From contig NC_090355.1 of NCBI RefSeq assembly GCF_035084215.1, positions 27,094,001 to 27,158,000 on the forward strand: a stretch of DNA of 64,000 bases, given 5' to 3'. The notes under the pieces were generated by a model. That model did no database searches, was not told the origin of the DNA, and saw only the letters and a list, made by a program, of their open reading frames with translations. Origin of the DNA: Heptranchias perlo. Lineage: Eukaryota. Of the stretch, positions 2,691-63,986 are shown piece by piece (position 1 is the first letter of the stretch; each line of letters starts with the position of its first letter). Both the position numbers and the translations under genes were made by a program.

Positions 2691-4064
2691 GGTGTTTAAT
2701 TACCCAAGAAAGTCCTGGCATCTATTATTTATTCCCTCTGGCCAGACATATGAGGATCTTAACCATACCACCTTGTCTCTCAATTTTGCTACCCTAACCA
2801 GCATTGACAAAATAAGTATTTGTAGTTCTTTGCACTACTTGAATGCAGTTTCAATTTTAGTGGACTTTAAGTGCTACTTTGTAAAATCAGGATAAGGTGC
2901 TGCAATTAAGATCATGTTACAAAAACTTGTAGACTGTTGCTGCATTAATTTCAGTAAAGATAAAAGATATAATCAAATGTTAAAGAAAAACATGGAACTA
3001 GATCACCTCGTTGAATTTTGCTTTCATGGGTACCTGTTCTGTGTTACTGGAGTTTTGCAGGCTACAATACAACATACAAATTTTAAAAATAATTTTTTTA
3101 AAAACTAAAGCATCATTAAGAAAGCAGACATCTAATAGGAATCCATTTAGGAAAGAAGCCTTTCATATGTATGTGTATCTTTTGGAGTCTAAATATATGA
3201 AGTTAATTATTTCAAATAATCTGTTCAACTATGAAAATAATTGCCTGTCTCTGCTGATTTTCCATTCCCCATTTTTCTCTTTACTCAGACTTGAAAGGAC
3301 TCCCTTGTACAATACCCTGTCCATCTGTGTTTGCCAGTAATTGAGACGGATCGGCATCTGTTATTGTCTCAACTACTGGATGAAGTGTGAGGTTACAATA
3401 GTCACAAAAATTAACTAGGTGTTAAATTTAAGGATGTTTGCATATTAAGAAGGCAATGGGTATTTTGTTTTTAAACAGTACATGAAAATGCATTGGTTGC
3501 AATGCTGTGGGTGGAGTTCAAAAAAAAAAGTTTCTCCATTCACTTTGTGTCACTGCATCACTCTTGCAATTGGACTTAACAACTCCAAGCCAGTTTGCCT
3601 GGTATAATTAGCAACCACCGTTTGAACAAAAATATTTGAAACAAATCTACAGAAGTACAGTGATAAAGGATATAGAGGCATGGAGAAGGTGCAAAAAAGA
3701 TTTACAAGGATGATACCAGAACTGAGAGGTTATACCTGTCAGGAAAGATTGATCAGGCTGGGGCTCTTTTCTCTAGAAGAGAAGGCTGAGGGGTCACCTT
3801 TTAAAGGTCTTTAAGATTATCAAAGGATTTGATAGGGTCGATGTAGAGAAGTTTCCACTTGTGGGGGAGATCAAATTTAGGGGCCATTAATATAAAATAG
3901 TCATTAATAAATACAATGAGGAATTCAGGAGAAACGTCTTTACCCAAAGAGTGGTTAGAATGTTGAACATGGAGTAGTTGAGGCGAATAGCATAGATGCA
4001 ATTAAGGGGAAGCTAGATAAACACATGCAGGAGAAAGGAATCAAAGGATATACTGATAGGTTTA

Positions 4065-4270
4065 GATGTGGAGATGCCGGTGATGGACTGGGGTGGACAA
4101 ATGTAAGGAATCTCACAACACCAGGTTATAGTCCAACAGTTTTATTTGAAAATCACAAGCTTTCGGAGGCTTTCTCCTTCGTCACCTGACGAAGGAGAAA
4201 GCCTCCGAAAGCTTGTGATTTTCAAATAAAACTGTTGGACTATAACCTGGTGTTGTAAGATTCCTTACAT
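4065..4270. mobile_element. Penelope-like element (PLE) terminal-repeat palindrome, copy 1
   Basis: 84-nt inverted arms at 4101-4184 and 4187-4270 (1 mismatch) plus an unpaired ~36-nt tail at 4065-4100. Flanked by a 13-bp near-TSD, ataggtttagatg (4056-4068) / atagggttagatg (4269-4281). Confidence 0.85.
4182..4218 (+). ncRNA. Minimal type I hammerhead ribozyme motif (PLE type)
   Basis: tcac-CTGACGA-a-GGAG(aaagc)CTCC-GAAA-gc-TT-gtga: helix I tcac/gtga, helix II GGAG/CTCC, and a palindromic AGCT helix III typical of dimeric minimal hammerheads. Confidence 0.7.
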
Positions 4271-4660
4271 AGGGTTAGATGAAGAGGGATGGGAGGAGGC
4301 TTGTGTGAAGCATAAACCAGTTGGACCGAATGGCCTGTTCCTGCGTCGTTCTATGTAAAAGCGTTCATTGTAATGCTCTGTAAATTTTCAATTTTAAAGA
4401 GGAAGCTGGTGTTGAAACCCGCTGTTTTGCGCATTCTCAGACGAGCACCCCTTAATGCTGCAGTGTGACATTCACAGCATCAACTACCCTTGTGACCTCT
4501 CAGCTGGGAGCTGATTGCAAATTCTGAGCACTTTTTTTTGTTGTGGATTGAGTTTTTTTTTGTTATGGATTTGCCCCTGCTGGGTACTGGGTAAATTCTC
4601 CAAACTCGCATTTTGTAGGACCCTTGCATCCTGCAGAGAGAAATTGGATTAGAATCCAAT

Positions 4661-6742: not shown

Positions 6743-7569
6743 GAAAGTATCATACTGGTAGAGTAGATGCCATGATAAGATTCAGGATTACAGTAAATTG
6801 TTCAACAAGAGCATCTTCATCTAACCTATGCAGTATCCTGACGTCGACATGCTTAATGCTGGGTGCAACACTTGCGGGGTGGGGGGGGGGGGGGGACAAA
6901 ATATTCCACTACCTAGTACCAATGTCCTTCAAAAAAAATTCCCACCTCCCCCAGCCCCTATCTGGGTGGAAAACTGCATCCAGCTATCCATCATAAGAGA
7001 AGCTTCAATCAAGAATGAATTTGGGCTCAGTATAGATTTCATAGTTCAGTGGAATATATGCAATATCTGTAATTCTAATGGAAGCAAATTCCTGGCAATG
7101 TGCAGATGTCTTCAAGTTATTTCTGATTAGCTTTCTTATCTAGTCATTATTGGCACAGCCAATAATGTTTGATACATCTGGTTATGTGAAATTTTCTTTT
7201 TGTCTAACCTGATAGATTGCATAGAATAGGATTGCACTGTATATGTTCACTTCAATTAATATTGGATTGTACATACAATAGCGAGCTTGGAATTCTTCCA
7301 CAGTTACAGATTTGTAACCTTTCAGTCAGTCACATGATCAGGAAATTGCACTTAGCTACATCGCAAGATTACAGCAATAGGACAACAACTTCAAGCAAGT
7401 GATTTTTTAAAAAGTTTTTTTTAATCCTCTGTTGAAGGTCACTGCACTCTGGGGCCTCTCCTAAGTAGCCATTCTTCATTGATAAGTTTACACGGGTGAA
7501 TGTTGCTTGACAAATTCAACTGTGATAGGGCATCAGTACCAAGAATTGATTCTGCACTTACACATCCAA

Positions 7570-9460
7570 CATATAGACAGAGCTAAGCGACTCCACAACC
7601 AACGGATCAGATCAAAGCTCTGCAGTCCTGCCACATCCAGTCGTGAATGGTGGTGGACAATTAAACAACTAACGGGAGGAGGAGGCTCTGCAAACATCCC
7701 CATTCTCAATGATGGCGGAGTCCAGCACGTGAGTGCAAAAGACAAGGCTGAAGCGTTTGCAACCATCTTCAGCCAGAAGTGCCGAGTGGATAATCCATCT
7801 CAGCATCCTCCCGATATCCCCACCATCACGGAAGCCAGTCTTCGGCCAATTCGATTCACTCCACGTGATATCAAGAAACGGCTGAGTGCACTGGATACAG
7901 CAAAGGCTATGGGCCCCGACAACATCCCAGCTGTCGTGCTGAAGACTTGTGCTCCAGAACTAGCTGCGCCTCTAGCCAAGCTGTTCCAGTACAGCTACAA
8001 CACTGGCATCCACCCGACAATGTGGAAAATTGCCCAGGTATGTCCTGTCCACAAAAAGCAGGACAAATCCAATCCGGCCAATTACCGCCCCATCAGTCTA
8101 CTCTCAATCATCAGCAAAGTGATGGAAGGTGTCGTCGACAGTGCTATCAAGCGGCACTTACTCACCAATAACCTGCTCACCGATGCTCAGTTTGGGTTCC
8201 GCCAGGACCACTCGGCTCCAGACCTCATTACAGCCTTGGTCCAAACATGGACAAAAGAGCTGAATTCCAGAGGTGAGGTGAGAGTGACTGCCCTTGACAT
8301 CAAGGCAGCATTTGACCGAGTGTGGCACCAAGGAGACCTCGTAAAATTGAAGTCAATGGGAATCAGGGGGAAAACTCTCCAGTGGCTGGAGTCATACCTA
8401 GCACAAAGGAAGATGGTAGTGGTTGTTGGAGGCCAAGCATCTCAGCCCCAGGGCATTGCTGCAGGAGTTCCTCAGGGCAGTGTCCTAGGCCCAACCATCT
8501 TCAGCTGCTTCATCAATGACCTTCCCTCCATCATAAGGTCAGAAATGGGGATGTTCGCTGATGACTGCACAGTGTTCAGTTCCATTCGCAACCCCTCAGA
8601 TAATGAAGCAGTCCGAGCCCGCATGCAGCAAGACCTGGACAACATCCAGGCTTGGGCTCATAAGTGGCAAGTAACATTCGCGCCAGATAAGTGCCAGGCA
8701 ATGACCATCTCCAACAAGAGAGAGTCTAACCACCTCCCCTTGACATTCAACGGCATTACCATCGCCGAATCCCCCACCATCAACATCCTGGGGGTCACCA
8801 TTGACCAGAAACTTAAGTGGACTAGCCATATAAATACTGTGGCTACGAGAGCAGGTCAGAGGCTGGGTATTCTGCGGCGAGTGACTCACCTCCTGACTCC
8901 CCAAAGCCTTTCCACCATCTACAAGGCACAAGTCAGGAGTGTGATGGAATACTCTCCACTTGCCTGGATGAGTGCAGCTCCAACAACACTCAAGAAGCTC
9001 GACACCATCCAAGATAAAGCAGCTCGCTTGATTGGCACCCCATCCACCACCCTAAACATTCACTCCCTTCACCACCGGCGCACTGTGGCTGCAGTGTGCA
9101 CCATCCACAGGATGCACTGCAGCAACTCGCCAAGGCTTCTTCGACAGCACCTCCCAAACCCGCGACCTCTACCACCTAGAAGGACAAGGGCAGCAGGCGC
9201 ATGGGAACAACACCACCTGCACGTTCCCCTCCAAGTCACACACCATCCCGACTTGGAAATATATCGCCGTTCCTTCATTGTCGCTGGGTCAAAATCCTGG
9301 AACTCCCTTCCTAACAGCACTGTGGGCGAACCGTCACCACACGGACTGCAGCGGTTCAAGAAGGCTGCTCACCACCACCTTCTCGAGGGCAATTAGGGAT
9401 GGGCAATAAATGCCAGCCTTGCCAGCGACGCCCACATCCCGTGAACGAATAAAAAAAATT
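7570..9460 (+). mobile_element. 5'-truncated CR1/L2-group LINE with uninterrupted ORF2 RT and C-terminus (ORF 7507-9396)
   Basis: GPDNIP, NYRPISLLS, QFGFR, LDIKAAFD, GVPQGSVLGP, FADD and WNSLP motifs in one frame; 3'UTR stem-loop and A-tail. Inserted in a family X SINE (7430-7560 / 9468-9525). Confidence 0.93.
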
Positions 9461-17559: not shown

Positions 17560-17790
17560 AATAGAATGTGGAATTTGCTACCACATGGAGTGATTGAGGT
17601 GAATAGCATGGATGCATTCAAGGGGAAGCTAGATAAATACGAGGGAAAAAGGAATAGAAGGATATGTTGATAGTTAGATGAAGTAAGGTGGGAGGAGGTT
17701 CATGTGAGGCATAAACACCGGCATAGATCTGTTGGGCTGAATGGCCTGTTTGTGCTGTAAAATCCTGTAAAATGTAATGTAATTCTATGT
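17560..17790 (+). mobile_element. CR1 3' end fragment
   Basis: agaatgtggaatttgctaccac...gggctgaatggcctgtt and tail. Confidence 0.8.
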
Positions 17791-63908: not shown

Positions 63909-63986
63909 GTGACAGATCATGCCACTACAGCATTGCTGCACTACCAGCTGCCTCAGATGCCAGATGTGGTTGTCAGGTCTTTCATG
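63909..63986 (+). CDS. MED27: MED27 internal coding exon (78 nt, phase 0-0; equivalent of human exon 7)
   Basis: Acceptor tttttttctcactcag| and donor |gtgagt. Translates VTDHATTALLHYQLPQMPDVVVRSFM, the MED27 C-terminal segment. Confidence 0.96.

Follow-up and report, generated by a model that had tools for sequence, protein, structure and literature searches.

The insertion at positions 4065–4270 of the DNA analysed here, a 64,000-nucleotide stretch of Heptranchias perlo (contig NC_090355.1, 27,094,001–27,158,000; the window in what follows), is probably the truncated remnant of a Penelope-like retrotransposon (PLE), a palindrome likely built at insertion, in which, according to prediction, the fold hides a hammerhead ribozyme motif that is likely idle. 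Its layout, a textbook inverted pLTR plus tail, is already known, and the locus is real but mostly ordinary: it is one among very many young Penelope stumps and shows no sign of host function. The notable detail is an apex common to two copies in the window, yet combined with a private loop-II variant that is mirrored in the two arms of each copy. This bears on how PLEs form inverted-pLTR-plus-tail insertions, and on what a hammerhead does when cleavage is unneeded.

Architecture of the Insertion and Its Target Site

The element proper of the first copy (copy 1) measures 206 bp, its ends having been fixed by comparing both copies. As the sequence-only reading had proposed, its body is a 170-nt palindrome (4101–4270) of two 84-nt arms, 4101–4184 and 4187–4270, which are separated by a CC loop (4185–4186) and carry one mismatch (C4114/A4257). 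The right arm is a direct, 5′-truncated pLTR fragment on the + strand without tail, and the left arm is an inverted, 5′-truncated pLTR fragment on the - strand, where the core has G at position 3. The one-sided tail, anticipated at about 36 nt and found at exactly that length, occupies 4065–4100 (- strand) on the left side only; it extends the sense strand of the pLTR past the end of the arm, is identical in copy 2 and is associated with two end classes in the family. At the apex, the micro-palindrome TCA-CC-TGA (4182–4189) comprises the 5′ strand of helix I and the start of the catalytic core, and is the likely join site. A small stem-loop of 6 bp at the end of the right arm (4254–4269, +), visible in the sequence and in the fold of the sense 3′ end, would adjoin the putative proximal start of reverse transcription. 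The palindrome folds as RNA at -157 kcal/mol (z -21.8), which was equalled by 0 of 200 shuffles, and the insertion contains no open reading frame. An AATAAA hexamer (4225–4230, +) lies inside the duplex, 3′ of the hammerhead; it and its counterpart in copy 2 read in the MED27 sense direction as a cryptic poly(A) signal, which would be buried too.

The target repeats at 4056–4068 and 4269–4281 (both +) agree at 12 of 13 bases; the left repeat overlaps the element start by its last 4 nt and the right repeat overlaps the element end by its first 2 nt. Because the repeats overlap both ends of the element, the length of the duplication is 7–13 bp, and the 13-bp target-site duplication (TSD) that had been claimed is thus present, but at 12/13 instead of 13/13 matches and with a true length within that range. 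Of 3000 random draws of flanks, 2 gave a match of at least 12 bases with at most one mismatch. The insertion of copy 1 split the 3′ end of an older LINE (3774–4345, +, approximate boundaries; repeat family D17), which we take to be CR1-like. A paralogous LINE 3′ end at 17583–17716 has both flanks joined, with a single copy of the target site, and represents the empty site. Elsewhere in the window, a 636-codon open frame (7486–9393, +) with an RVT_1 match (E 1.9e-39) is a fairly intact LINE ORF2 fragment.

Copy 2 (40914–41145, +) comprises an element at 40929–41134 with the same apex and a hammerhead at 41046–41082, and is 95% identical to copy 1 over 208 nt. It is flanked by a perfect 12-bp TSD (40914–40925/41134–41145) and has an extra CAT at 40926–40928; TSDs are therefore variable, at 7–13 bp (12/13) in copy 1 and 12 bp (12/12) in copy 2. 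Sensitive BLAST of the 64-kb window revealed no third copy. Between these two full copies, the only ones compared, apex, arm length and tail side are identical, and in loop II each copy has its own 3-nt variant, present in both of its arms. The arm mismatches of copy 2 (41037, 41045 and 41048) are all in the left arm and at most 12 nt from the apex, the other 72 nt having none, and one of the three restores the N7 variant of two metagenomic relatives (L001 and L002, described below); a second template, error-prone joining or mutation at the hairpin tip may account for them. Over both copies, the four arm mismatches (two T>C, one A>G and one CpG G>A) are uninformative on an ADAR footprint in the genomic copies.

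The Hammerhead Motif and Its Predicted Burial

A minimal type I hammerhead occupies 4182–4218 on the + strand, which is the MED27 sense strand. Its core CUGACGA (4186–4192) is followed by an extra A4193; helix I is UCAC/GUGA (4182–4185/4215–4218), and helix II consists of 4 bp (4194–4197/4203–4206) closed by G10.1-C11.1. GAA (4207–4209), the palindromic AGCU (4210–4213) and U17 (4214) complete the motif. The claim of a complete minimal hammerhead at the apex was thus borne out by a helix-constrained descriptor, with the addition of A4193, which the claim had not mentioned: the descriptor matches the window exactly twice, at 4186 and at 41050 on the + strand, whereas 200 shuffles yielded 0.01 matches on average. 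The - strand core reads G at position 3, and the full motif exists on the + strand only. The core CUGANGA/GAAA/UH, the extra nucleotide after A9, the G10.1-C11.1 pair and the palindromic 15.1–16.1 are all present, and copy 1 shows every hallmark listed for minimal PLE hammerheads in PMC4209133 that is visible in a single sequence. Motif anatomy also supports a predicted cut after U4214, as had been suggested, and the cleavage triplet CUU conforms to the NUH rule, in which U17 is allowed. U17 makes for a slower hammerhead substrate.

Hammerhead covariance models, the check recommended in the sequence-only reading, did not recover the motif: the Rfam models gave no match at E≤1 in the window, nor at E≤10 in the apex region and in L001 and L002. 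The sole Rfam match, to MIR7696 (53.9 vs a gathering score of 83), was rejected as a generic long-hairpin match. Across the four available sequences (copies 1 and 2, L001 and L002), 32 of 32 helix cells are paired, with no two-sided change and one one-sided change, in helix I; none of the four helix II pairs varies, and variation is confined to loop II, N7 and N17. Fish and amphibian genomes contain thousands of single, dispersed minimal hammerheads, and minimal PLE motifs are described as showing no activity in monomeric form and little as dimers (PMC4209133). In the Anolis PLE known as PAc (PMC11167929), a C3G change abolishes the motif; the motif depended on the PLE's own protein, and insertion in vitro did not need the motif.

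Sequestration of the ribozyme by the duplex in the sense transcript, which had been proposed, was reproduced as a fold prediction. With the left arm of copy 1 present, the G10.1-C11.1 pair is predicted to form with a probability of at most 1e-14 at all five transcript lengths, from completion of helix II onwards; with the left arm removed, it is predicted at 0.01 for copy 1 and 0.31 for copy 2. A designed dimer is predicted to be nested and fully paired, but for copy 1 its energy exceeds that of the best cofold by 4.3 kcal/mol. Dimerisation of copy 1 with copy 2, which is 36.9 kb away, was rejected as unlikely, both motifs being predicted to be buried. The term self-silenced ribozyme overstates design. 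Any head-to-head join of pLTRs buries the motif automatically, and selection is not needed. Burial of the ribozyme, as predicted by the fold models, is likely a by-product, and the hammerhead likely does nothing at this locus.

Probable Relationship to Penelope-Like Elements

A pattern scan of metagenomes recovered two loci, L001 and L002, both with the hammerhead motif (79% over 43 nt), the native UCAC strand of helix I and an AATAAA downstream of the motif; similar scans of viral contigs and genome contigs gave no match. In both loci (2/2), PLE-type coding fragments are no more than about 0.8 kb away from the motif. The reverse transcriptase (RT) fragment of L001 is 49% identical to an RT-EN protein (P0003), for which no useful PDB match was obtained. 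In the L002 open reading frame, a two-cysteine GIY-YIG core (CCHH motif) and an upstream CX2-5CxxC finger were read by eye; such a finger combined with a GIY-YIG core marks the endonucleases of Neptune- and Nematis-type PLEs, as described in PMC8557442. Pfam assigned no family to this frame itself, and a relative of it (P0002) matched GIY-YIG at E 0.0086, which does not reach the curated cutoff. Both longer relatives of the frame are proteins with an RT. The two marine-metagenome loci (L001 1–1050 and L002 1–1470) are near-identical assemblies of rearranged PLE pieces, with an inverted segment before the hammerhead end, after which L001 has the RT fragment and L002 the Neptune-type GIY-YIG fragment.

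In the window, tblastn with proteins P0001–P0003 detected no PLE open reading frame. Because no parent element from the host was found, the link to PLEs runs through distant relatives. Judged from sequence, a Penelope-like origin of copy 1 is nonetheless likely, and the earlier proposal of such an origin is supported by the inverted-pLTR-plus-tail layout and by the position of the motif beside RT and GIY-YIG fragments in L001 and L002.

The Element Family in Sequencing Runs

One arm plus tail served as the reference for a comparison of 4 of 22 sequencing runs (X1, X5, X21 and X22), among which X21 gave 8 reads and X22 none, too few to weigh. In the DNA run X1, from which the window may originate, 12,610 contigs match this reference, although summed contig depth is not equivalent to copy number. 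The family is abundant in the host, and copy 1 is a young member of it. Among the loose ends listed for X1, the element gives way to long unrelated flanks at 4065 in 149 contigs and at 4099/4100 in 67 + 53 contigs, which gives two end classes about 35 nt apart. By analogy with PAc, these two end classes are the presumed signature of two RT start sites. Ahead of 4065, GTCAT closes the consensus of the loose ends, whose overall agreement is about 0.4; together with the extra CAT of copy 2, this consensus indicates that the tail likely abuts a sense-strand ATG.

Also among the loose ends listed, 95 X1 contigs extend past 4184 with the consensus GGTGAG.. This represents native upstream sequence; therefore TCACC is native, and the apex is a 3-bp TCA/TGA overlap. 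The join-site sequence TCA-CC-TGA is likewise native in L001 and L002 as well as in the X1 loose ends. Junctions vary within the family, since alternative joins and partial tandems were observed in X1 and X5: the loose ends listed include opposite-strand junctions at 4151/4184 in one X1 contig and at 4106/4179 in one X5 contig, and partial tandems leading from 4134 or 4168 back to 4065. The bin of the CC apex (4185–4189) has a summed depth of 25,162 in X1, about 2% of the adjacent bin, a rough figure subject to edge effects. Logan contigs rarely span the palindrome, and the apex spectrum is thus poorly sampled.

Run X5 is guessed to be RNA. In this run, 4115 A>G reaches 3.7% vs 0.5% in X1, whereas 4110 A>G and 4140 T>C are lower than in X1, and no edit cluster at ≥3% was found in X5. 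Depth differs as well: the ratio of the tail (4065–4099) to the arm (4110–4169) is about 4x in X5, guessed to be RNA, and about 0.7x in X1, and the CC-apex bin stands at 0.14% of its neighbour in X5 and 1.9% in X1. In addition, 4101 A>T amounts to 38% in X5 vs 8% in X1. Loss of duplex RNA from libraries or a different mix of subfamilies could underlie the depth contrast.

Probable Assembly of the Palindrome and Alternative Explanations

The sequence-only reading had also described a TSD-flanked palindromic Penelope mini-element of about 205 bp. Its size (206 bp) stands and a Penelope-like origin is supported; the data lean towards construction of the palindrome at insertion rather than movement of the whole unit. 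Following the account of Anolis Poseidon in PMC11167929, the GIY-YIG/RT protein of a PLE would nick both target strands, and cDNA would be primed from two internal starts on uncleaved pLTR RNA, the distal start giving the tail-bearing end and the proximal start the tail-less end. Synthesis of the cDNA may stop near the hammerhead, and the products may join through the 3-bp TCA/TGA micro-palindrome of helix I and core, either by snap-back or by annealing of two cDNAs; subsequent repair would leave the target duplication. With about 29 nt separating the apex from the predicted cut downstream of it, the template would have been uncleaved at that site, as in PAc (PMC11167929). The apex is upstream of the cut site, and the idea that ribozyme cleavage created it was therefore rejected.

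The mirrored loop-II variants rule against a single palindromic master, and the simplest account is that one source supplied both arms of each palindrome as it inserted; the mirrored loop II could also stem from two subfamily masters or from later homogenisation of the arms. An identical apex, tail side and arm length would be predicted equally by a family that moves as a unit, which counts against construction at insertion. Such a non-autonomous palindromic family, transcribed and retrotransposed whole by a PLE protein, is in our judgement unlikely. Its template would be the - strand transcript, whose 3′ end holds the sense arm and tail; with G as the third core position and full pairing, this transcript could not cut itself. 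This proposal agrees with the identical apex, arm length and tail of two independent insertions, with the incomplete core of the - strand (C3G kills the PAc motif; PMC11167929), with the existence of non-autonomous PLE derivatives (PMC8557442; bioRxiv 10.64898/2026.07.22.740005) and with the appreciable depth of the CC apex in X1. However, it sits poorly with loop-II variants that are mirrored within each copy, and the RT would have to displace an 84-bp duplex. Moreover, the end without a tail falls where the second end class does (4099/4100, 120 contigs among the loose ends listed), which fits an RT start and not the 5′ end of a transcript; the CC bin has, by the rough measure given above, a small fraction of the depth of its neighbour, and other junctions occur.

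A regulatory duplex kept by the host in the MED27 pre-mRNA, acting as a switchable ribozyme or through Dicer- or ADAR-dependent control, appears very improbable. Both copies do retain an intact sense-strand motif, a near-perfect duplex is predicted, lizard Penelope repeats and frog palindromic Harbinger repeats are heavily edited (PMC5625713), and 4115 A>G is raised in X5. Nevertheless, that run is only guessed to be RNA, 4110 and 4140 are lower there than in X1 and a ≥3% edit cluster was not detected in it; copy 1 is a young insertion from a very abundant family inside an older LINE remnant; the same orientation in 2/2 copies is at chance level; helix II forms in about 1% of predicted folds of copy 1 even without the left arm; and minimal motifs show little activity (PMC4209133). 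It is scarcely credible that the insertion is a foldback element or MITE of a DNA transposon with an incidental hammerhead match. It would share with these a short, AT-rich, palindromic sequence, a high copy number and a flanking duplication, but with a tail on one side only its termini are not inverted repeats, the duplications of the two copies are unlike in length and sequence, the family contains partial head-to-tail tandems, and the hammerhead is far above chance and tied to RT and GIY-YIG fragments elsewhere.

A bolder proposal, which we regard as rather doubtful, is that the micro-palindrome of hammerhead helix I and core is a hard-wired join site of PLEs, which either joins cDNAs at every insertion or founded palindromic families that move whole. 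If joining occurs at every insertion, the ribozyme fold would have a role besides cleavage; if the site founded families, palindromic non-autonomous families would move on the strand with the disabled core. In either case, the second half of PLE integration would be recorded in thousands of self-buried ribozyme hairpins in introns, which would also feed dsRNA pathways.

Comparison with Known Systems

PLE insertions with an inverted pLTR and a one-sided tail of 30–40 nt are described in PMC8557442 and PMC3846280, and both copies, each with an inverted arm, a direct arm and a 36-nt tail, fit this layout, as had been claimed. Insertions of EN+ PLEs resemble copy 1 in the head-to-head, inverted, 5′-truncated copy, the tail of 30–40 nt at one end and the variable TSD (PMC3846280 and PMC8557442), and resemble this family in junction palindromes or overlaps and in partial tandems; in rotifers the reported TSD is 8–10 bp. 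Palindromes at inverted junctions have been read as self-priming (PMC3846280). The present copies differ in that they have no open reading frame, that the 84-nt arms are nearly symmetric and that the junction lies inside the hammerhead in both copies, whereas the accessible parts of these two papers describe no apex fixed at a ribozyme. In the literature searched, mostly non-subscription papers screened by listing and start of abstract, no report was found of palindromic shark PLE stumps whose apex is fixed in the hammerhead.

The motif of copy 1 shares its hallmarks with the minimal PLE hammerheads of PMC4209133; in that study, helix II has 6–8 bp in schistosome and fly examples in contrast to 4 bp here, and the motif of copy 1 is embedded in its own antisense copy. 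N17 is U here and A in L001 and L002. Similarly, the Poseidon element PAc of Anolis carolinensis has two internal RT starts, one on either side of the tail, about 0.1 kb beyond the hammerhead; targets are AT-rich and uncleaved RNA is the substrate of insertion, but its open reading frame starts in helix II, whereas the candidate ATG here follows the tail (PMC11167929 for PAc). In addition, relatives of the copy 1 family (L002) carry the extra Zn-finger of Neptune/Nematis, not of Poseidon. Non-LTR retrozymes likewise derive from PLEs, are short and non-coding, contain a type I hammerhead and have been reported in a cartilaginous fish (PMC7229834; bioRxiv 10.64898/2026.07.22.740005). Retrozymes, in these same sources, are head-to-tail tandem repeats with a working motif per unit, whereas the locus here is a head-to-head pair with one complete motif. 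Assignment to the non-LTR retrozymes was rejected, given no tandem array at the locus and one complete motif per insertion.

The MED27 Context

Exons of MED27 at 59826–59867 and 63909–63986 (both +) match PDB MED27 chains, and the segment at 42484–42591 (+) is presumably a further MED27 exon, judging from short sequence motifs. Copy 1 is upstream of these three exons and likely in an intron. Because short motifs of earlier exons gave no convincing match in the window, we infer that both copies likely lie within one long MED27 intron. In the MED27 pre-mRNA, the left arm would be transcribed first and is predicted to capture the emerging motif in an 84-bp duplex, a plausible ADAR substrate as a by-product. 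Editing of this duplex is plausible by analogy with the heavily edited repeats of lizard and frog (PMC5625713), and such elements would provide ADAR with many perfect duplexes in introns.

Other inverted repeats were observed in the window. Inverted LINE 3′ ends at 55056–55504 and 59977–60425 (449 nt, 96% complementary) bracket the 42-nt MED27 exon at 59826–59867 and could favour exon skipping or circular RNA. Short-range, MITE-like inverted repeats lie in 53652–54039 and 58431–58816, with 71-nt arms 246 nt apart (96%) and with 44- and 36-nt arms that are about 250–300 nt from each other and precede a MED27 exon by about 1 kb.
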